From the IMG/VR virus record IMGVR_UViG_640753023_000007: a DNA stretch of 41,597 nucleotides, one strand, 5' to 3'. This DNA comes from a virus (lineage: Duplodnaviria; Heunggongvirae; Uroviricota; Caudoviricetes). Below the pieces are notes generated by a model. That model was not told the DNA's origin. It worked only from the letters and a program-made list of their open reading frames with translations, and did not search any database. Position numbers and translations under genes: made by a program. Of this stretch, positions 9,470-41,597 are shown piece by piece. Positions within the stretch are counted from its first letter, which is position 1; every line of letters begins with the position of its first letter.

Positions 9470-9585
9470 TTTCATGTCCTTATTATTACGCTCTGTACTG
9501 GAACCATCCATGCACAATGTGTATTTTTACTTGTATTCGCAAAGTACATATTGTATTTTTTATTCGTGTTTACTATGGAGGGCAT
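9470..9585. promoter_or_regulatory. Divergent pRM/pR promoter and OR operator region
   Basis: 116-bp AT-rich intergenic region between divergent cI and cro; contains AAGTACATATTGTATTT (9542-9558), matching the reverse complement of the OL-region motif at 14 of 17 positions, plus a 9-bp palindrome CACAATGTG. Confidence 0.5.
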
Positions 9586-12181: not shown

Positions 12182-12213
12182 AGGCCTGCAGGTAATCGCA
12201 GGCCTTTTTATTT
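12182..12213 (+). terminator. Intrinsic terminator between ren and ninB (tR2-like)
   Basis: Perfect 8-bp stem AGGCCTGC / GCAGGCCT with 8-nt loop followed by TTTTTATTT. Confidence 0.7.
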
Positions 12214-12229: not shown

Positions 12230-12670
12230 ATGAAAAAACTAACCTTTGAAATTCGATCTCCGGCACATCAGCAAAACGCTATTCACGCAGTACAGCAAAT
12301 CCTTCCAGACCCAACCAAACCAATCGTAGTAACCATTCAGGAACGCAACCGCAGCTTAGACCAAAACAGGAAGCTATGGGCCTGCTTAGGTGACGTCTCT
12401 CGTCAGGTTGAATGGCATGGTCGCTGGCTGGATGCAGAAAGCTGGAAGTGTGTGTTTACCGCAGCATTAAAGCAGCAGGATGTTGTTCCTAACCTTGCCG
12501 GGAATGGCTTTGTGGTAATAGGCCAGTCAACCAGCAGGATGCGTGTAAGCGAATTTGCGGAGCTATTAGAGCTTATACAGGCATTCGGTACAGAGCGTGG
12601 CGTTAAGTGGTCAGACGAAGCGCGACTGGCTCTCGAATGGAAAGCGCGATGGGGAGATCGGGCTGCATGA
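12230..12670 (+). CDS. ninB: NinB (recombination mediator Orf family)
   Basis: Track ORF 12212-12670; start at MKKLTFEIRSPAHQQNAIHAVQQILPDPTKPIVVTIQERNRSLDQNRKLW preceded by GGAG; matches lambda NinB. Confidence 0.85.
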   Translation: MKKLTFEIRSPAHQQNAIHAVQQILPDPTKPIVVTIQERNRSLDQNRKLWACLGDVSRQVEWHGRWLDAESWKCVFTAALKQQDVVPNLAGNGFVVIGQSTSRMRVSEFAELLELIQAFGTERGVKWSDEARLALEWKARWGDRAA

Positions 12671-13194
12671 CTATCAAATCAAATACGCCAGCACACGACA
12701 AGGACTGCTGGCAAACGCCGCTTTGGCTTTTTGATGCACTGGATATTGAGTTTGGATTCTGGCTGGATTCGGCAGCGAGCGACAAAAATGCTCTGTGCGC
12801 TCACTGGCTAACTGAGGACGACGACGCGCTCAATTCTGAGTGGGTAAGCCACGGTGCAATCTGGAATAACCCACCGTACAGCAATATCAGGCCGTGGGTG
12901 GAAAAAGCCGCTGAGCAGTGTATACAACAGCGACAGACGGTAGTGATGCTTGTGCCAGAGGATATGTCTGTCGGATGGTTCAGCAAGGCTCTGGAGAGTG
13001 TTGACGAAGTTCGTATTATCACTGATGGACGGATTAATTTTATCGAACCATCGACAGGGCTGGAGAAGAAGGGAAACAGCAAAGGCTCCATGCTGCTGAT
13101 TTGGCGACCGTTCATCAGTCCTCGACGGATGTTTACTACCGTATCCAAAGCGGCATTGATGGCGATCGGGCAGGGCGTCAGGAGGGCTGCATGA
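12667..13194 (+). CDS. Phage DNA N6-adenine methyltransferase (Dam-like)
   Basis: Track ORF 12607-13194; start at Met overlapping ninB stop (ATGA); contains NPPY motif (WNNPPYSN) typical of N6-adenine methyltransferases; occupies the ninC position. Confidence 0.75.
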
Positions 13195-14936: not shown

Positions 14937-15025
14937 CAAAATAAAGGGTAATATATAACAGAAGGTTTATATAGTAAGAAGCAAGGTAGTGCTTCTAAAG
15001 GAAGTGGCTTGAGGGCTCCACTTAT

Positions 15026-15064
15026 ATGTTGCGGAGGCAAAGCCTCCCGCAACATATCTTTTTC
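15026..15064 (+). terminator. Candidate tR-prime-like terminator about 140-180 nt downstream of Q
   Basis: 12-bp stem with one bulge (ATGTTGCGGAGG / CCTCCCGCAACAT, loop CAAAG) followed by ATCTTTTTCG on the plus strand; spacing from Q fits a short pR-prime transcript; promoter hexamers only tentatively placed near 14883-14911. Confidence 0.5.
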
Positions 15065-15074
15065 GTAAGTCAGA

Positions 15075-16157
15075 TTAGAACTGATAAACCAGACCTACAG
15101 CGACGATGTCGTCGGTATCAATACCAGCTGTTTTGGTAAACTTACTATCGTCAATTAAGTTGATTTTGTAATCAACAAAAGTGGACATGTTTTTATTAAA
15201 GTAGTAAGTAGCACCGACATCGACATACTTGACTAAGTCTCGGTCACCATGAACACCAAGGTCTTTACCTTTTGACTGAAGGTAAGCAACAGATGGACGC
15301 AGACCGAAGTCAAACTGATATTGTGCTACTGCTTCAAAGTTTTGTGCTTTGTTTGCAATATGGTTATTACCAAAAACGGTCATATTCTGAGTTTCAGAAT
15401 ATGTGGTAGCCAGATAGATATTGTTCGCATCATATTTCAGGCCTGCAGCCCATACTTCCGCATTTTTGCCGGAGGCATTGAATTTGCTCTTACCATAGGC
15501 GACCTGACCGTCAGTGCGATCTGATTTAGCATAGGTTGCACCCACGCCGAATCCTTCATACTCATAAGTAGTGGAGAAACCGAAACCATCACCATTGGCT
15601 TCAGTTACGTCAGTGCGGTCATTTTTACCCTGATACTGAGCAGCAAAGTTCAGGCCATCGACCAGACCAAAGAAGTCGTTGTTACGATAAGTTGCAACAC
15701 CAGTAGTGCGACCAGTCATGAACACATCTGTTTGGGTCCAGGTATCACCACCGAATTCTGGCAGAACGTCAGTCCACGCACCGATGTCGTATGCTACACC
15801 GTAGTTACGGCCGTAATCGATTGAGCCGTAATCACCAAATTTCAGGCCTGCAAATGCAAGACGGGTTTTGTCTTTGGAAGAACCTTGAGATTCAGCACGG
15901 TTGCCTTTGAATTCATATTCCCACTGACCGAAACCAGTCAGTTGATCGTTGATTTGGGTTTCACCTTTGAAGCCAAGACGGGCATAAGTAGTATCACCAT
16001 CATCTGCATCATTAGAGGAGAAGTAGTGCTTGGCATTAACTTTCCCGTATAGATCCAGCTTGTTACTGTCTTTATTATAAATTTCAGCTGCCTGAGCAGA
16101 CATCGCCATCAGTACTGATGCAGCTACAGCAGAAATTGCCACTGTTAATTTTTTCAT
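15075..16157 (-). CDS. nmpC: Outer membrane porin NmpC/OmpD-like (lysogenic conversion moron)
   Basis: Track ORF 15075-16217; start at [23 protein letters not shown] (signal peptide); C-terminal residue F; general-porin family features; inserted antisense between Q and the lysis genes as in DLP12. Confidence 0.9.
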
Positions 16158-16582
16158 TGTACGCCCTTTTTTTGAACTATTATTAAAAAATGATGTCACT
16201 GCGCGATAAATATTCATCTAATCAATGTGATTATTTCAAGATGTAAGTTTTAGTTTCTCATTTAATTTGTGAAGTAGATCTCTATTTTTATCTGAACCTT
16301 TTCTATCTAATCCTATTCATGGCTCTTGTCTGAACAAAAATAAATCTATTAGCTAATTTATATTAATGGCACTTATTTATAAGTGCTCTATAATTCTTTA
16401 GCTTAATTTAAACAAACTAAAAATAACATTGGAAATTATTAACTGGTTATTTGTTGAAGTTTTCTTATGCATTTGTGGTGGTGTTTTGAACACTCGGTGG
16501 CATTCTCACAAATATCATTTAGTAGTTTACGTACGTAAAAAATTGGTTATGCTGTTAAGAGTGGTTACTTCGTCACACAGCT

Positions 16583-16616
16583 TAAACCCGCCGTCGAGCG
16601 GGTTTTTCCATTTTTT
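16583..16616 (+). terminator. Candidate intrinsic terminator upstream of the lysis cassette
   Basis: Plus-strand hairpin AAACCCGC-(6 nt)-GCGGGTTT followed by TTCCATTTTTTG, about 130 nt before the holin start. Confidence 0.5.
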
Positions 16617-16745
16617 GAGTCTCGATATTAGCTGATAACCCAATACCTGAGTTATTCACTGACTCCGAATCTGTTACGTTTCTGCCTTTATTGCGATACG
16701 TAGTATCCCCTTAATTTACACCCGCTTTGTCTGCGAGGTGGGGTT

Positions 16746-16961
16746 ATGAAATCCATGGATAAGTTAACAACGGGTGTCGCCTATGGTACCTCAGCAGGTA
16801 GTGCCGGGTACTGGTTTTTACAGTTGCTCGATAAAGTCACGCCCTCACAGTGGGCGGCAATAGGTGTGCTGGGTAGCCTGGTATTTGGCCTGCTGACGTA
16901 CCTGACAAACCTTTATTTCAAGATTAAAGAAGATAAGCGCAAGGCTGCGAGAGGTGAATAA
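16746..16961 (+). CDS. S: Holin, phage 21 S-type pinholin
   Basis: 71-aa [34 protein letters not shown]...; two TM segments; closely resembles S21 pinholin. Confidence 0.9.
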
Positions 16962-17458
16962 TGCCTCCATCATTACGAAAAGCCGTTGCTGCTGCTATTG
17001 GTGGCGGAGCAATTGCTATAGCATCAGTGTTAATCACTGGCCCAAGTGGTAACGATGGTCTGGAAGGTGTCAGCTACATACCATACAAAGATATTGTTGG
17101 TGTATGGACTGTATGTCACGGGCATACAGGAAAAGACATCATGCTCGGTAAAACGTATACCAAAGCAGAATGCAAAGCCCTCCTGAATAAAGACCTTGCC
17201 ACGGTCGCCAGACAAATTAACCCGTACATCAAAGTCGATATACCGGAAACAATGCGCGGCGCTCTTTACTCATTCGTTTACAACGTGGGTGCTGGCAATT
17301 TCAGAACATCGACGCTTCTTCGCAAAATAAACCAGGGCGATATCAAAGGCGCATGTGATCAGCTACGTCGCTGGACATATGCTGGCGGTAAGCAATGGAA
17401 AGGTCTCATGACTCGTCGTGAGATTGAGCGTGAAATCTGTTTGTGGGGTCAGCAATGA
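16961..17458 (+). CDS. R: SAR endolysin (lysozyme with N-terminal signal-anchor-release domain)
   Basis: 165-aa ORF with Gly/Ala-rich hydrophobic N-terminus ([20 protein letters not shown]) followed by lysozyme domain; matches phage 21 R. Confidence 0.9.
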
Positions 17459-17916
17459 ACAGAGTAACCGCGATTATCTCCGCTCTGGTTATCTGCATCA
17501 TCGTCTGCCTGTCATGGGCTGTTAATCATTACCGTGATAACGCCATTACCTACAAAGCCCAGCGCGACAAAAATGCCAGAGAACTGACGCTGGCGAACGC
17601 GGTAATTACTGACATACAGATGCGTCAGCGTGATGTTGCTGCGCTCGATGCAAAATACACGAAGGAGTTAGCTGATGCGAAAGCTGAAAATGATGCTCTG
17701 CGTGATGATGTTGCCGCTGGTCGTCGTCGGTTGCACATCAAAGCAGTCTGTCAGTCAGTGCGTGAAGCCACCACCGCCTCCGGCGTGGATAATGCAGCCT
17801 CCCCCCGACTGGCAGACACCGCTGAACGGGATTATTTCACCCTCAGAGAGAGGCTGATCACTATGCAAAAACAACTGGAAGGAACCCAGAAGTATATTAA
17901 TGAGCAGTGCAGATAG
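17455..17916 (+). CDS. Rz: Rz i-spanin
   Basis: Track ORF 17443-17916; ATG at 17455 overlaps the endolysin stop; N-terminal TM segment then coiled-coil-like region. Confidence 0.85.
17675..17857 (+). CDS. Rz1: Rz1 o-spanin lipoprotein, embedded in Rz in the +1 frame
   Basis: 60-aa ORF with lipobox (LVVVGC) and proline-rich mature region; GAAGGAG upstream of ATG. Confidence 0.8.
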
Positions 17917-17947
17917 AGCTGCCCATATCGATGGGCAACTCATGCAA

Positions 17948-18241
17948 TTATTGTGAGCAATACACACGCGCTTCCAGCGGAGTATAAATGCCTAAAGTAA
18001 TAAAACCGAGCAATCCATTTACGAATGTTTGCTGGGTTTCTGTTTTAACAACATTTTCTGCACCACCACAAATTTTTGCTGCATCGACAGTTTTCTTCTG
18101 CCCAATTCCCGAAACGAAGAAATGATGGGTGATGGTTTCCTTTGGTGTTACTGCTGTAGGTTTGTTTCCAACAGTAAACGTCTGTTGAGCACATCCTGTA
18201 ATAAGCATTGCCAGAGCGGCAGAAAACAACATTTTTTTCAT
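17948..18241 (-). CDS. bor: Bor lipoprotein (serum resistance)
   Basis: Track ORF 17948-18289; start at MKKMLFSAALAMLITGCAQQ (lipobox LITGC); 97 aa; matches lambda Bor. Confidence 0.9.
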   Translation of the reverse strand: MKKMLFSAALAMLITGCAQQTFTVGNKPTAVTPKETITHHFFVSGIGQKKTVDAAKICGGAENVVKTETQQTFVNGLLGFITLGIYTPLEARVYCSQ

Positions 18242-18721
18242 CTTATTATCCTGCATTGTTAAAAACGGCAGAATCCTATGTGACAACAATTAAACGATAG
18301 TTAAATGGATTGATGAAAATTAAAACTACACAGGTGGGCTCAGACTATTGGAGGAAGTTGGGGACACTCAGAATCCTGTGGAATGAAATAAACCGGTCTA
18401 TCCGTCCATTACCCTTTTAGCTGCGCTGTATCGTCGCCGTATTCCCGCATTAACCATGACCGTAGCCCGACGGGGAATTCCTTCTGCGTGAGTGTGCGGG
18501 AATAATTAAAAACGATGCACACCGGGTTTTTACCGCGTTAATGATTCGCGGGTTTATCCCGGTGCGATGGTGGAAGAAACAGGAAGCTGTATTACAGAAA
18601 GTGCTACTACTGTATCCCGATGCGATGTATGTAATGTGAGTCAGATAATGGCACAGGATGTGGTGATGTGGCAGTCTGGAACACAGGATATATTGTCAGA
18701 ATAAGACCCGTAGGAATAAAA

Positions 18722-19048
18722 ATGAAAAGACGCCTTTTACTACTTTTTCTGTTATCTGTCCTGGCAGTGGGATGCTCGCAGCAAAAAGCTGATGAGCCCC
18801 GGCAATTAGTGACGGTGTATCCACGATATCCGGAATATGCTGCAGCAAATTATATCAAGGGGCTGGTTGAGGTTAAGTTCGATATTGGTGCTGATGGGAC
18901 TGTGACACGGATCGTTTTTCTCCGCTCAGAGCCTCATAATTTGTTTCGTGATGAAGTGGTGAAGGCCATGGCGAAATGGCGATTTGAAAAGAATCGCCCC
19001 TGTCAGGGAGTGAAGAGACAATTTATCTTTACGCCGTCACGTCCTTGA
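18722..19048 (+). CDS. Lipoprotein with TonB C-terminal-like domain (moron)
   Basis: Track ORF 18668-19048; start at MKRRLLLLFLLSVLAVGCSQ (signal peptide plus lipobox) preceded by AGGA; body resembles TonB-C fold pattern (YPRYPEYAAANYIKGLVEVKFDIGADGTV ... VKAMAKWRF). Confidence 0.55.
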   Translation: MKRRLLLLFLLSVLAVGCSQQKADEPRQLVTVYPRYPEYAAANYIKGLVEVKFDIGADGTVTRIVFLRSEPHNLFRDEVVKAMAKWRFEKNRPCQGVKRQFIFTPSRP

Positions 19049-19170
19049 TGCTTCCAGGTAGAGAGGGGCTGGAAGCAGGAGAAAAATGAAAGAGCCAGCG
19101 GTTATATTTTTGTCATGGCTGACGAGGAATGATGGAAGAAGGCGTTGTATGCCACACAACGCCTCACTGT

Positions 19171-19524
19171 TCATTTCTTCTTTTTCTCTGGTGGAACCCG
19201 ATGAATAAGAGTTGCACTGGTTTCCGATGAGATGGCGATATACTCGGGCAAAGTATGCTGGCAGTTTTCCAACTGGTCAAAAATACCTGCTCTCGTCTGT
19301 TGCAATGCCTGCAGCATGCGGCGGCAATGCGCCTTGCTTTTACTAACCATCTTTCCTTCCTCTATCAGTCGCTGCGTGAACTCATCATGGAATACCAGGT
19401 AAATGCGGATGTTATCGGTTTTGGCTACGCAGCATAGTACAAAACGGACAGGTGCATCCCGGGACGGGGGAGGCGTCACATGTCCCTGTGATGGTTGTTC
19501 CGGGTAATGTACTGTGTGGGGCAT
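19171..19524 (-). CDS. Hypothetical ORF, possibly the 3-prime part of the same disrupted gene
   Basis: 117-aa ORF in another frame overlapping the previous ORF by about 113 nt; no motif recognised. Confidence 0.25.
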   Translation of the reverse strand: MPHTVHYPEQPSQGHVTPPPSRDAPVRFVLCCVAKTDNIRIYLVFHDEFTQRLIEEGKMVSKSKAHCRRMLQALQQTRAGIFDQLENCQHTLPEYIAISSETSATLIHRVPPEKKKK

Positions 19525-19663
19525 AAAAATGTCCGATAATTTTACTTTCTACCGCAGTTAGTTGATTCGTTGGTCCTGGTAGCACATTGGGCGAGGATTT
19601 AAATGCCAGGCAACTGAAGGATGATGTCGCAAGGGAGATAGCGAGAATATTTCTGATTTTCAT
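19412..19663 (-). CDS. Hypothetical secreted Cys-rich protein (83 aa from internal Met)
   Basis: Track ORF 19412-19732; internal start MKIRNILAISLATSSFSCLA looks like a signal peptide; may be the 5-prime part of a gene disrupted by frameshift (see findings). Confidence 0.3.
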   Translation of the reverse strand: MKIRNILAISLATSSFSCLAFKSSPNVLPGPTNQLTAVESKIIGHFYAPHSTLPGTTITGTCDASPVPGCTCPFCTMLRSQNR

Positions 19664-19908
19664 TTGATGATGCCTCTGTGTGAAATGACGGTAAACGACG
19701 CACTTGTGCCGGCACATAATAGCAAGCACCATAATAGATCAGATTCGATTCTTGCTGTAAGTCAGGGAAAATCGTGTCGGTACTTCTCGAATATAACTTT
19801 TTGTTTTTTTTAATATTGCATCCGTAAAGGTCCGACATGAAAGTGTCCGAAAATGCCTTTTTCTGGCGTTTTCATGTCGGGCCTTGTATTTGATAATGGG
19901 TTGTTTTC

Positions 19909-20457
19909 ATGAAGGTTAATAAAAAGAGGCTTGCCGAAATTTTCAACGTGGACCCGCGGACGATTGAACGCTGGCAGTCTCAGGGACTCCCTTGCGCCTC
20001 CAAAGGTAGTAAGGGCATTGAATCTGTATTTGATACTGCCATGGCAATTCAGTGGTATGCGCAGAGGGAAACTGATATCGAAAACGAAAAGCTCCGCAAA
20101 GAACTGGCCGATTTGCGTGCGGCAGCGGAGTCAGATTTACAACCCGGCACCATTGACTATGAACGCTACCGGCTCACAAAAGCGCAGGCAGATGCGCAGG
20201 AACTGAAAAATGCCCGTGAAGACGGAGTAGTGCTGGAAACTGAACTGTTTACCTTCATTCTGCAACGTGTGGCACAGGAGATTTCGGGGATACTTGTGCG
20301 TGTGCCGTTGACATTACAGCGTAAATATCCGGACATTTCACCATCACACCTTGATGTGGTGAAAACTGAAATCGCGAAAGCCTCCAATGTTGCAGCTAAG
20401 GCCGGTGAAAACGTGGGCGGGTGGATCGATGATTTCAGACGCGCAGAAGGCAGCTAA
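19909..20457 (+). CDS. nu1: Terminase small subunit (Nu1 homologue)
   Basis: 182-aa [31 protein letters not shown]... with conserved middle region ([47 protein letters not shown]) matching lambda Nu1; N-terminal DNA-binding part divergent. Confidence 0.9.
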
Positions 20458-22357
20458 TGCAGCCGGTGCGATAGCTACAGGGCTTTTATCTCTCATTATT
20501 CCTGTTCCACTGACGACAGTTCAGTGGGCCAATAAACATTATTACCTTCCTAAAGAGTCGTCTTATACCCCGGGGCGATGGGAAACACTGCCGTTTCAGG
20601 TTGGCATCATGAACTGTATGGGCAACGATCTGATTCGCACGGTTAACCTGATTAAATCTGCCCGTGTTGGTTATACAAAGATGTTGCTGGGAGTGGAGGC
20701 TTATTTTATTGAGCATAAATCACGCAACAGCCTTCTTTTTCAGCCCACGGACTCAGCTGCTGAAGATTTTATGAAATCTCATGTTGAGCCAACGATAAGG
20801 GATGTTCCTGCATTGCTGGAGCTGGCTCCATGGTTCGGAAGAAAACACCGCGATAATACGCTCACCCTGAAGCGTTTTTCCTCCGGTGTGGGGTTCTGGT
20901 GTCTGGGTGGTGCGGCAGCAAAAAACTACCGTGAAAAATCCGTGGATGTGGTCTGTTATGACGAGCTTTCCTCGTTCGAACCGGATGTTGAAAAAGAGGG
21001 TTCGCCAACCCTGCTGGGGGATAAACGTATTGAGGGCTCTGTATGGCCAAAATCCATTCGCGGCTCGACGCCTAAAATCAAAGGCTCCTGCCAGATCGAA
21101 AAAGCCGCTAACGAGTCGGCACACTTCATGCGTTTTTATGTGCCCTGTCCGCACTGTGGGGAGGAGCAGTATCTGAAATTTGGCGATGATGCCTCGCCTT
21201 TCGGTCTTAAGTGGGAGAAGAATAAGCCAGAAAGTGTTTTCTACCTTTGTGAGCATCATGGCTGTGTGATCCATCAGTCTGAGCTTGACCAGAGTAACGG
21301 GCGGTGGATCTGTGAAAACACGGGCATGTGGACCCGTGACGGCCTGATGTTTTTCAGCGCCCGGGGTGATGAAATTCCGCCGCCGCGCTCCATCACTTTC
21401 CATATCTGGACGGCGTACAGTCCGTTCACCACCTGGGTACAGATTGTCTATGACTGGCTGGATGCACTGAAAGATCCCAACGGCCTGAAAACCTTTGTGA
21501 ACACCACGCTGGGCGAGACCTGGGAAGAGGCTGTGGGCGAAAAACTCGATCACCAGGTGCTGATGGATAAGGTTGTGCGTTACACGGCGGCGGTGCCTGC
21601 CCGGGTGGTTTATCTGACGGCGGGCATTGACTCGCAGCGAAACCGTTTTGAGATGTATGTCTGGGGATGGGCTCCGGGAGAGGAAGCCTTTCTGGTGGAT
21701 AAAATCATCATTATGGGGCGTCCCGATGAGGAAGAGACGCTGTTACGTGTGGATGCGGCGATCAACAAAAAATACCGCCATGCAGACGGAACCGAAATGA
21801 CCATTTCCCGTGTCTGCTGGGACATCGGGGGGATCGATGGCGAAATCGTTTATCAGAGGTCAAAAAAACACGGTGTTTTCCGGGTGCTGCCGGTAAAAGG
21901 CGCATCTGTCTATGGCAAGCCGGTGATCACCATGCCAAAAACCCGCAATCAGCGGGGCGTGTATCTGTGTGAAGTGGGGACGGACACCGCAAAAGAAATT
22001 CTCTATGCCCGTATGAAAGCCGATCCCACGCCTGTGGATGAAGCCACGTCGTATGCTATCCGTTTTCCTGATGATCCGGAGATTTTTTCGCAGACAGAGG
22101 CGCAGCAACTGGTCGCGGAAGAGCTTGTGGAGAAGTGGGAAAAAGGAAAGATGCGTCTGCTGTGGGATAACAAAAAGCGGCGTAACGAAGCGCTGGACTG
22201 CCTGGTGTATGCCTACGCGGCATTACGTGTGTCCGTGCAACGCTGGCAGCTTGATCTGGCTGTACTGGCAAAATCCCGGGAAGAAGAGACGACCCGGCCA
22301 ACCCTTAAAGAACTGGCAGCGAAGCTGTCCGGAGGAGTGAATGGTTACAGTCGCTGA
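20429..22357 (+). CDS. A: Terminase large subunit (gpA)
   Basis: Track ORF 20387-22357; ATG at 20429 overlaps nu1 3-prime end; long stretches match lambda gpA ([25 protein letters not shown], endonuclease and ATPase regions). Confidence 0.95.
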
Positions 22358-35413: not shown

Positions 35414-38400
35414 ATGGGTAAAGGCAGCAGTAAGGGGCATACCCCGCGCGAAGCGAAGGACAACCTGAAATCATCCCAGATGCTGAGCGTGATAGACGCC
35501 ATCAGCGAAGGGCCGGTTGAAGGTCCGGTGGATGGATTAAAAAGCGTGCTGCTGAACAGTACGCCGGTGCTGGACAGTGAGGGGAATACCAATATATTCG
35601 GCGTCACGGTGGTGTTCCGGGCCGGTGAGCAGGAGCAGACTCCGCCGGAGGGATTTGAATCCTCCGGCTCCGAGACGGTGCTCGGTACAGAAGTGAAATA
35701 TGACACGCCGATCACCCGGACCATCACGTCGGCAAACATTGACCGTCTGCGTTTTACTTTCGGCGTGCAGGCACTGGTGGAAACCACCTCAAAGGGGGAC
35801 AGGAATCCATCGGAAGTCCGCCTGCTGGTTCAGATTCAACGTAACGGTGGCTGGGTGACGGAAAAAGACATCACCATTAAGGGCAAAACCACGTCGCAGT
35901 ATCTGGCCTCGGTGGTGGTGGATAACCTGCCGCCGCGCCCGTTTAATATCCGGATGCGCAGGATGACGCCGGACAGCACCACAGACCAGTTGCAGAACAA
36001 AACGCTCTGGTCGTCATACACCGAAATCATCGATGTGAAACAGTGCTACCCGAACACGGCACTGGTCGGCGTACAGGTGGACTCGGAGCAGTTCGGCAGC
36101 CAGCAGGTGAGCCGTAATTATCATCTTCGCGGGCGCATTCTGCAGGTGCCGTCGAACTATAACCCGCAGACGCGGCAATACAGCGGTATCTGGGACGGAA
36201 CGTTTAAGCCAGCATACAGCAACAACATGGCCTGGTGTCTGTGGGATATGCTGACCCATCCGCGCTACGGCATGGGGAAACGTCTTGGTGCGGCAGATGT
36301 GGATAAATGGGCGCTGTATGTCATCGGCCAGAATTGCGACCAGTCAGTGCCGGACGGCTTTGGCGGCACGGAGCCGCGCATCACCTGTAATGCGTACCTG
36401 ACCACACAGCGCAAGGCGTGGGATGTGCTCAGTGATTTTTGCTCGGCGATGCGCTGTATGCCGGTATGGAACGGGCAGACGCTGACATTCGTGCAGGACC
36501 GACCGTCGGATAAGGTGTGGACCTATAACCGCAGTAATGTGGTGATGCCGGATGATGGCGCGCCGTTCCGCTACAGCTTCAGCGCCCTGAAAGACCGCCA
36601 TAATGCCGTTGAGGTGAACTGGATTGACCCGGATAACGGCTGGGAGACGGCGACAGAGCTTGTGGAGGACACGCAGGCCATTGCCCGTTACGGTCGTAAC
36701 GTCACGAAGATGGATGCCTTTGGCTGTACCAGCCGGGGGCAGGCACACCGCGCCGGGCTGTGGCTGATTAAAACGGAGCTGCTGGAAACGCAGACCGTGG
36801 ACTTCAGCGTGGGTGCAGAAGGGCTTCGCCATGTACCGGGTGATGTCATTGAAATCTGTGATGATGACTATGCGGGGATCAGCATCGGCGGGCGCGTGCT
36901 GGCGGTGAACAACCAGACGCGGACACTGACGCTCGACCGTGAAATCACGCTGCCATCCTCCGGCACCACGCTGATAAGCCTGGCTGACGGACAGGGGAAT
37001 CCGGTCAGCGTGGAGGTCCAGTCCGTCACCGACGGCGTGAAGGTAAAAGTGAGCCGTGTTCCTGACGGCGTTGCAGAATACAGCGTGTGGGGGCTGAAGT
37101 TGCCAACGTTGCGCCAGCGCCTGTTCCGCTGTGTGAGTATCCGTGAGAACGATGACGGCACGTATGCCATCACTGCCGTGCAGCATGTACCGGAAAAAGA
37201 GGCCATCGTGGATAACGGGGCGCACTTTGACGGCGACCAGAGCGGCACGGTGAATGGTGTCACGCCGCCAGCGGTGCAGCACCTGACTGCCGAAGTCACC
37301 GCAGACAGCGGGGAATATCAGGTGCTGGCGCGCTGGGACACGCCGAAGGTGGTGAAGGGGGTGAGCTTTATGCTTCGCCTGACCGTGGCAGCGGATGACG
37401 GCAGTGAGCGGCTGGTCAGCACGGCCCGGACGACGGAAACCACATACCGCTTCAGGCAACTGGCGCTGGGGAACTACAGGCTGACAGTCCGGGCGGTAAA
37501 TGCGTGGGGGCAGCAGGGCGATCCGGCATCGGTATCGTTCCGGATTGCCGCACCGGCAGCGCCGTCGCAGATTGAGCTGACACCGGGGTATTTTCAGATA
37601 ACCGCCACGCCGCATCTTGCGGTTTATGATCCGACGGTACAGTTTGAGTTCTGGTTCTCGGAAAAGCGGATTGCGGATATCAGGCAGGTTGAAACCACAG
37701 CACGCTATCTTGGCACGGCGCTGTACTGGATAGCCGCCAGTATCAATATCAAACCGGGCCATGATTATTATTTTTACATCCGCAGTGTGAACACCGTTGG
37801 CAAATCGGCATTTGTGGAGGCTGTTGGCCAGCCGAGTGATGATGCATCCGGCTATCTGAATTTTTTCAAAGGAGAGATAGGGAAAACCCATCTGGCTCAG
37901 GAGTTGTGGACGCAGATTGATAACGGTCAGCTTGCGCCTGACCTGGCTGAAATCAGGACGTCCATTACGGGTGTCAGCAATGAAATCACGCAGACCGTCA
38001 ATAAGAAACTGGAAGACCAGAGTGCAGCGATCCAGCAGATACAGAAGGTTCAGGTTGATACAAATAATAACCTGAACAGCATGTGGGCTGTGAAGCTGCA
38101 GCAGATGCAGGACGGACGCCTTTATATCGCGGGTATTGGTGCCGGTGTTGAGAATACTCCCTGACGGTATGCAGAGTCAGGTGCTGCTGGCGGCGGACAG
38201 GATTGCGATGATTAATCCTGCGAATGGCAACACAAAGCCGATGTTTGTTGGGCAGGGCGATCAGATATTCATGAACGAAGTGTTCCTGAAATATCTGACG
38301 GCTCCCACCATTACCAGCGGTGGCAATCCCCCAACGTTTTCACTGACACCTGATGGTCGACTTTCTGCGAAAAATGCGGATATCAGCGGTAACGTGAACG

Positions 38401-38897
38401 CGAACTCCGGGACGCTCAACAACGTCACGATTAATCAGAACTGTCGGATTCTGGGAAAACTGTCAGCTAACCAGATTGAAGGTGATATTGTCAAAACGGT
38501 GGGAAAAGCCTTTCCGAGAAATGGCAGTTATGCCAGCGGTACAATAACGGTCACTGTGTACGATGACCAGGCTTTTGACCGTCAGATAGTAGTCCCCCCC
38601 GTTCTGTTTCGTGGGGGTAAGCATGAAAACTTCAACAGCAACAACCAACAGTCATACTGGTATTCAACCTGTAAGCTGCAGGTACTGAAGAACGGACAGG
38701 AAATCTTTCAGCAACCCGCGACGGATGTCAGCAGGGTATTTTCATCAGTCATTGATATGCCTGCCGGACACGGCCATGTCACCCTGACTTTCAATGTTTC
38801 TTCATATGGTGCTAATAACTGGACGCCAACGACCAGTATCAGCGACCTTCTTGTTGTTGTGATGAAGAAATCTACAGCCGGTATCAGTATCAGTTGA
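35414..38897 (+). pseudogene. J: Tail tip / host specificity protein J, split by an apparent +1 frameshift at 38159-38161
   Basis: Frame A ORF 35414-38164 ends ...[10 protein letters not shown] then TGA; the protein continues in another frame as [23 protein letters not shown]... to 38897; an extra C in the CCC run at 38159-38161 explains the shift. Confidence 0.8.
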
Positions 38898-41303: not shown

Positions 41304-41597
41304 ATGGATATAAGCCCCTTACTTCATGCGCTTTGTGCTGTGGCTGCGCAGATACTGGTTGGTCTTTTTACCGGAAACTGGGCTTACGGAGCGATAGCCG
41401 GTTGTACGTTCTTCATTGCGCGTGAACATACCCAGGCAGAATATCGCTGGATTGAAATGTTCGGGCATGGCAAGCGAATGAATATGCCGTGGTGGGGCGG
41501 TTTTGATCCGCGAGCTTGGGATGTGGCAAGCCTGATGGATTTTGCTGTGCCGGTGGTGGCGTGTCTGCTGGTCTGGCTGTTGGTTAATCGTGGGTGA
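41304..41597 (+). CDS. Hypothetical small membrane protein (97 aa)
   Basis: ORF preceded by AAGGAGG; two hydrophobic segments (LLHALCAVAAQILVGLFTGNWAYGAIAGCTFFIA and LMDFAVPVVACLLVWLLV); stop codon at the window end. Confidence 0.4.
   Translation: MDISPLLHALCAVAAQILVGLFTGNWAYGAIAGCTFFIAREHTQAEYRWIEMFGHGKRMNMPWWGGFDPRAWDVASLMDFAVPVVACLLVWLLVNRG

Follow-up and report, generated by a model that had tools for sequence, protein, structure and literature searches.

A phage 21-type cos region without its cosN segment in the Escherichia coli APEC O1 prophage record, a probable artefact of vector screening

Terminase genes and cosB boxes upstream of gene 1

The DNA analysed here (41,597 nucleotides, referred to below as the window) carries two terminase genes, and the interval preceding them can be assigned by sequence comparison to the cos region of a phage-21-type lambdoid prophage. 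In a megablast search of phage records, positions 19300–20460 were 99.9% identical to phage 21 (M81255, X02501, OL657228) and to the same degree to the prophage-order records PhiR57_1 and PhiR63_2; over the cos region, the overall identity with phage 21 was 99.9–100%. The small terminase subunit TerS (Nu1, encoded by gene 1) is recognized by its Pfam match (Table 1) and is of the 21 type by its identity to phage 21 gp1 (181/182 residues), the lone change at residue 67 lying outside the DNA-binding domain, while it shares only 53% identity with lambda Nu1 and differs from it in the recognition helix. The large subunit TerL is encoded by gene 2; the index of a public assembly collection lists the same 642-aa protein in 10,765 blocks. 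Between bp 42 of the phage 21 cos and the first part of gene 2, gene 1 included, the window departs from phage 21 only in the single changed residue of gp1.

The earlier note, which was made from the letters alone, had described a perfect 11-bp inverted repeat, a half-copy, and TCCG decamers in this interval, and all of them were found as described when the sequence was checked. CCGACATGAAA lies at 19832–19842 and its reverse complement, TTTCATGTCGG, at 19870–19880; a 27-nt imperfect palindrome (19827–19853 and 19859–19885, 81% complementary) encloses both arms, and the half-copy together with the TCCG decamers corresponds to a direct repeat, AAAGGTCCGA / AAGTGTCCGA, at 19826 and 19841 with a spacing of 15 bp (repeat family D1). 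The two arms of the inverted repeat belong to the cosB boxes R2 and R1 of coliphage 21, as annotated in M81255 and OL657228, which agrees with the earlier proposal that the repeats are cosB-type sites for the N-terminal DNA-binding domain of Nu1.

Two further elements, R3 and the IHF site I1, had been overlooked in the earlier note and lie to the left of these repeats (Table 1). The three-box consensus TCRTGTCGGNNCTT gave three matches in the whole window at ≤1 mismatch, where 0.37 would be expected, at 19772 (+), 19827 (−), and 19872 (+), all inside 115 bp and in the order forward, reverse, forward. This is the 21-type arrangement of R3, R2, and R1 upstream of the small terminase gene, and R2 is likewise annotated in OL657228 as oppositely oriented to R3 and R1. 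The predicted I1 lies between R3 and R2, as in the 21 type, and has the same sequence as the I1 annotated in phage 21; by the M81255 annotation (238–252), it would extend over 19792–19806. R3, I1, R2, and R1 agree with those of phage 21 in sequence, orientation, and spacing, and the 21-specific G:C pair at R3 bp 56 is present at 19776. R3 is the critical TerS site, in which bp 56 and 59 have a role (PMC4669245). The putative IHF site I0 is found directly 5′ of gene 1 and overlaps the ribosome-binding site. The promoter and terminator scan of the interval gave nothing above chance.

Table 1. Features of the cos region and the terminase genes, with positions in the window
Feature	Position	Strand	Sequence, counterpart or domain
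R3	19770–19785	+	AATCGTGTCGGTACTT; exact match to OL657228 feature 50–65 and M81255 feature 216–231
IHF site I1 (predicted)	19794–19806	+	TAACTTTTTGTTT; between R3 and R2; same as OL657228 feature 74–86
R2	19827–19842	−	TTTCATGTCGGACCTT (reverse-strand reading); holds the first repeat arm; OL657228 feature 107–122
R1	19870–19886	+	TTTCATGTCGGGCCTTG; holds the second repeat arm; OL657228 feature 150–166, M81255 feature 316–331
Putative IHF site I0	19892–19906	+	M81255 feature 338–352, transferred at 100% sequence identity
Gene 1 (Nu1, small terminase subunit TerS)	19909–20457	+	Pfam Phage_Nu1, E = 1e-80
Gene 2 (large terminase subunit TerL)	20429–22357	+	Intact ORF; Pfam GpA_ATPase and GpA_nuclease

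The elements of the coliphage 21 cos follow each other in the order cosQ-cosN-I2-R3-I1-R2-R1-gene 1 (M81255, X02501, OL657228). The lambda cos (cosQ-cosN-I2-R3-I1-R2-R1-Nu1) has the same architecture, its cosQ and cosN core are the same in the intact relatives of the window, and the cosN and cosQ of phage 21 are identical to those of lambda (PMC4669245). In both phages, the bend that IHF introduces at I1 enables a TerS (gp1) dimer to dock on R3 and R2 through its winged helix-turn-helix domains, R1 being accessory; the bound TerS anchors TerL for the staggered nicking of cosN, which lies about 47 bp upstream of R3 (PMC4669245, PMC9026076). Initiation requires cosN and cosB, while termination at the next cos requires cosQ, cosN, and I2 (PMC4669245, PMC9026076).

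The R boxes of the window follow TCRTGTCGGNNCTT, while those of lambda are of the CGTTTCC type; the lambda-type R box CGTTTCCNTTCT had a sole match in the whole window, at 13067 with 1 mismatch, which is at chance level and far from cos. Neither the boxes near cos nor the Nu1 protein are thus those expected for lambda packaging specificity, and the suggestion of the earlier note that the specificity differs from that of lambda fits well with the literature, where lambda and 21 are the classic pair with distinct packaging specificities and cross-packaging is >1000-fold less efficient (PMC4669245). The site also differs from the simple cosB of the N15 type, which consists of a single R3 site without an IHF site and in which TerS starts at a distance of about 89 bp from the left end (PMC9026076): three R boxes and I1 are present in the window, and the ATG lies 186–189 bp from cosN in intact relatives.

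The missing segment and the relatives of the prophage

The absence of the lambda cosN upstream of nu1, reported in the earlier note, was borne out by exact and degenerate searches of both the interval and the whole window. The cosN 12-mer GGGCGGCGACCT had no match in the entire 41.6-kb window at 0 or 1 mismatch, and at ≤3 mismatches 33 matches were obtained against 31.8 expected by chance. The 23-mer GTTACGGGGCGGCGACCTCGCGG, containing cosN and its conserved flanks, was absent from the window at ≤3 mismatches, and the cosQ query CGGGTCCTTTCC gave in the window only chance-level matches inside tail genes.

Alignment with M81255, OL657228, and PhiR57_1 revealed a single clean 91-bp gap between positions 19761 and 19762, with perfectly identical flanks, which had escaped the earlier note. 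Unlike the phage 21 cos, the window lacks bp −50 to +41 in phage 21 coordinates (TGATAATTATTCTCGTTTTCGGGTCCTTTCCGTCGATCCAACAGGTTACG / GGGCGGCGACCTCGCGGTTTTTCACTATTTATGAAAATTTT). These 91 bp hold cosQ (GGGTCCT, −30 to −24), the cosN cohesive-end 12-mer (1–12), and most of I2, of which only the last 3 bp of the annotated site remain. The junction reads GATTCTTGCTGTAAG on its left and TCAGGGAAAATCGTG on its right side, and one T is ambiguous, that is, the microhomology amounts to 1 nt. In phage 21, cosN starts 188 bp upstream of the gene 1 ATG; in the window, there is no cosN about 47 bp upstream of R3, and termination would be affected as well, since cosQ falls inside the missing 91 bp and I2 is reduced to its remnant. 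The window agrees with phage 21 in cosB and TerS, and its lack of cosN and cosQ is accounted for by the 91-bp hole alone. The record as written contains intact terminase genes and an intact cosB with no site to cut. As judged from the alignment, cosN is absent since the cutting module is missing, and cos is neither divergent nor located elsewhere. The idea that the repeats stand in the place of cosN, or that cos lies elsewhere, did not survive: the hole removed cosN, and no alternative cos was found in the window.

Several origins of the gap were rejected. An IS or other insertion parting cosN from cosB would have left inserted bases, while the gap is a pure loss of 91 bp. Replication slippage or short-homology recombination is unlikely because the microhomology is only 1 nt. 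A divergent cosN or a cos at another place was discarded, as the whole-window searches with the cosN 12-mer and 23-mer and with cosQ remained at chance. Finally, the deletion is not peculiar to this copy of the sequence, since GenBank CP000468.1 has the same junction: positions 18833–41597 of the window are byte-identical to E. coli APEC O1 CP000468.1, junction included (position 915 of locus L021). This source was identified by exact-protein look-ups, in which the frameshifted J fragment and an old-style 256-aa call of gpV were on record for APEC O1 CP000468.1 only. Two further calls of the old annotation, a 656-aa TerL and a 157-aa Rz, each occur a single time in APEC O1.

The junction 50-mer had no match among 5,426 complete E. 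coli genomes or in 50,697 phage records; the E. coli collection excludes APEC O1, which explains why its search came out empty. The junction 30-mer GATTCTTGCTGTAAGTCAGGGAAAATCGTG likewise gave no match in IMG/VR, the JGI metagenomes, or the representative genomes of GTDB, and look-ups of ORFs crossing the junction retrieved no other carrier. All relatives that could be evaluated keep the module. The 60 best E. coli matches listed all span 391 bp rather than 300 bp, that is, they retain the 91 bp, and cosN is present 187–188 bp upstream of the ATG in each of the 10 contigs encoding an identical TerL. Among the IMG/VR loci with a 21-type Nu1, the module was kept in 77/77 evaluable cases, in 73 of them with the exact 12-mer 186–189 bp upstream. 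An identical gpV was found in nine loci, and the two showing the upstream marker ORF (L024 and L030) have a gene 1 spacing which implies that the 91 bp are present. In UTI89, cosN precedes the ATG of gene 1 by 189 bp, and S88 keeps the 91 bp as judged by gene spacing. Two variants of cosN, GGGCGGCGACCC (IMG/VR L061) and GGGCGGCAGCGG (L113–L115), were seen about 188 bp upstream of gene 1 beside a 21-type cosB and Nu1.

The window belongs with a group of inducible 21-like phages and prophages from ExPEC and ECOR strains, namely PhiR57_1, PhiR63_2, ev017, the prophage of ATCC 11775, and close relatives in CFT073, Nissle 1917, S88, and UTI89, with 99.4–100% identity over the window. The gene order from int to the side tail fibre is common to all of them; the relatives all keep the 91 bp, while the window lacks them. 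Apart from the 91-bp hole, only 4 SNPs and two 1-bp indels distinguish the window from the ATCC 11775 prophage. That prophage is located between icd and sitABCD, and by comparison with this near-identical relative the window prophage would also adjoin icd. The window starts at the stop codon of the integrase gene (int) and ends, at 41597, with the last phage ORF, which in the relatives precedes sitD; with both ends at gene boundaries, its borders look like those of a gene-based provirus prediction, and the att sites and icd fall outside.

The surroundings of the module were variable in other loci. Left of cosN, the 70 bp are mosaic in IMG/VR L036–L115, with at least 5 unrelated left flanks joined at about −50 or about −31. 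In many ST131 and O157 prophages, the 91-bp module alone is common with phage 21, and the shared stretch stops at +41. The cosQ-cosN-I2 block acts as a conserved cassette amid variable neighbours. In one locus, L116 (GCA_002109575.1, ADII01000021.1), no Bor, Nu1, or 5′ TerL genes were called downstream of Rz, and the sequence from just past Rz had no blastn match to the reference Bor-to-gene-1 region, which may reflect either a gap in the assembly or the deletion of a large segment.

Cargo genes are found in the part of the late region that precedes cos (15000–19100), namely a gene for an OmpC/NmpC-like porin, which has Q on one side and the lysis genes on the other, a Bor homologue at 17948–18241 (Iss in the ATCC 11775 annotation), and a partial TonB-like gene at 18668–19048. 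At 9555, a T run has 6 T, compared with 7 in ATCC 11775. In PhiR63_2 (L004), ren and ninB are separated by an IS200-family element of about 705 bp (12346–13050), which is absent from the window (at about 12207–12212) and from ATCC 11775; otherwise the window is collinear with PhiR63_2. In the window, gene J contains an extra C at 38159 (CCC, compared with CC in ATCC 11775), so that the 1160-aa tail-tip protein is broken into two pieces, one of 916 aa and one of about 252 aa (ORFs 35414–38164 and 38136–38897). This frameshift is on record only in APEC O1 CP000468.1, where either J is a true pseudogene or the extra base is a sequencing error. The draft GCA_012777355.1 was considered as independent support for the frameshift and rejected, as its contig (L020, AATFXS010000055.1) ends 3 nt past the site and has the wild-type sequence; the contig end corresponds to window position 38161, and the partial product equals the truncated APEC O1 J, giving a false second occurrence. 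The contig end may coincide with a mosaic boundary inside J that interrupts assemblies.

Origin of the 91-bp hole

The 91 bp were most likely removed computationally, by vector screening in the 2007 Sanger assembly of APEC O1, an explanation to which we assign a probability of roughly 0.65; the real APEC O1 prophage would then have an ordinary phage 21 cos. Smith–Waterman alignment of the 21-type cos with the lambda cos under the cross_match defaults (+1/−2, gaps −4/−3) gave one strong alignment with a score of 60, which spans exactly −50 to +41, the 91 missing bp; the next-best alignment scored 24 and lay elsewhere. Blastn at +1/−2 resulted in the same endpoints. The missing segment is thus, base for base, the local alignment to a component of cloning vectors. 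In Sanger-era phred/phrap pipelines, cross_match with the -screen option was the standard means of vector masking, and the lambda cos is present in cosmid, fosmid, and BAC vectors, of the kind against which reads were screened. The presence of lambda cosN in BAC vectors is documented (PMC8314000). A physical deletion would have no reason to end, to the base on both sides, where the similarity to lambda ends, and the chance that both ends of the hole coincide with those of the lambda-cos alignment can be put at about 1e-3 to 1e-4, which is a rough estimate rather than a computed statistic and allows for the several scoring schemes tried. With other scoring, the alignment runs from −31 to +41 (VecScreen-like, or +1/−3) or from −56 to +93 and beyond (default megablast).

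Some observations weigh against vector screening. The exact coincidence of the endpoints depends on one scoring scheme, though this was the standard of that era, and the Sanger-era genomes UTI89 and S88 retained cos. Masked bases normally remain as X characters, or the contig breaks at that point. As the sequence is instead silently joined between 19761 and 19762, an extra step is needed, in which the Xs were stripped or the contigs abutted. Nevertheless, computational removal is the best explanation, because the endpoints match, the hole is unique to one 2007 record, the microhomology is negligible, and the other lesion of the record in this window, the extra C in gene J, likewise has no independent support.

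The main rival, less likely but serious, is that the 91-bp deletion is real, that is, that a strain-specific event in APEC O1 removed cosQ, cosN, and I2. The hole stands with clean flanks in a deposited finished genome, and the extra C that interrupts gene J there is what a decaying prophage would be expected to show; the frameshift, however, has no independent support. Such a deletion might have arisen if the terminase cut the prophage cos in place and limited resection was followed by microhomology-poor end joining, or else by a random illegitimate deletion. The first route is consistent with the position of the hole, which is approximately centred on the nick sites (50 bp on the left, 41 bp on the right), with the 1 nt of microhomology, which fits break and rejoining, and with the remark that prophage cos sites can be cut in place, leading to dead-end packaging (Feiss et al., PMC4669245). 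However, the level of late-gene expression at which the terminase cuts normally lyses the cell too, and break and repair would ignore the ends of the lambda-cos local alignment, which both ends of the hole match to the base. Moreover, loss of cosN was seen in none of the several hundred relatives inspected.

An artefact of some kind other than cross_match masking, such as segment loss in a clone, a finishing error, or removal after a contamination screen, seems highly improbable. It would also agree with a hole that is unique to one Sanger-era record, and in a VecScreen-type search the lambda-like core does count as a strong match to vector (score 42); such scoring, however, delimits −31 to +41, which is 72 bp and not 91 bp, and clone instability or a finishing error is not expected to reproduce the boundaries of homology.

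A non-lambda cohesive-end site, or a cos elsewhere in the prophage with the repeats functionally replacing cosN, is barely credible and can be regarded as refuted for practical purposes: only the absence of cosN in the window speaks for it, while the window has the cosB and terminase genes of phage 21, a phage with the cosN and cosQ of lambda (PMC4669245), relatives with the same Nu1 all carry cosN 186–189 bp upstream of the ATG, no cosQ- or cosN-like site rises above chance elsewhere in the window, and the sequence now at cosN distance from R3 (19721–19732), a spacing that is critical in lambda (PMC4669245), is unlike cosN.

Consequences for the packaging of the prophage

As the record is written, the prophage resembles laboratory cosN-deletion prophages (the lambda cos2 helpers), which have terminase and structural genes and no cosN and are unpackageable in cis; 'lambda-P1:5R KnR cI857 nin5 cos2' is such a cosN deletion phage (PMC4669245). 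The lambda cos2-type deletions were made or selected in the laboratory, whereas that of the window stands in the record of a wild-type 21-like prophage and is probably not physically real.

Were the deletion real, terminase and capsids would be made on induction, and packaging of the prophage's own DNA would be neither started nor finished, which would make it the natural counterpart of the laboratory cosN-deletion helper prophages. We consider it unlikely that the hole is a physically real, clean natural loss of cosQ-cosN-I2 in an almost intact 21-like prophage, by which self-packaging was abolished while the 21-specific terminase and capsids are still expressed. Such a loss could be a footprint of in-place cutting by the terminase and end joining, and the prophage might serve as a natural 'cos-less helper' whose packaging is confined to other DNA in the cell that bears the phage 21 cos (islands or other prophages).

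The biology of the site is already known: it represents no new kind of packaging signal but the phage 21 cos plus a probable database artefact. Mapping and genetic work on the phage 21 cosB, R boxes included, goes back decades. A finished reference genome, APEC O1 CP000468.1, appears to be without a 91-bp functional site, likely due to the resemblance of this site to a cloning-vector component, and the gap mimics a biological peculiarity, 'a lambda-type terminase without cosN'. Predictions of prophage viability or of cos from CP000468.1 would therefore wrongly give a packaging-dead or 'novel' prophage. If the deletion should nevertheless prove real, it would provide a natural example of the cis inactivation of an otherwise complete prophage, a finding of modest weight.
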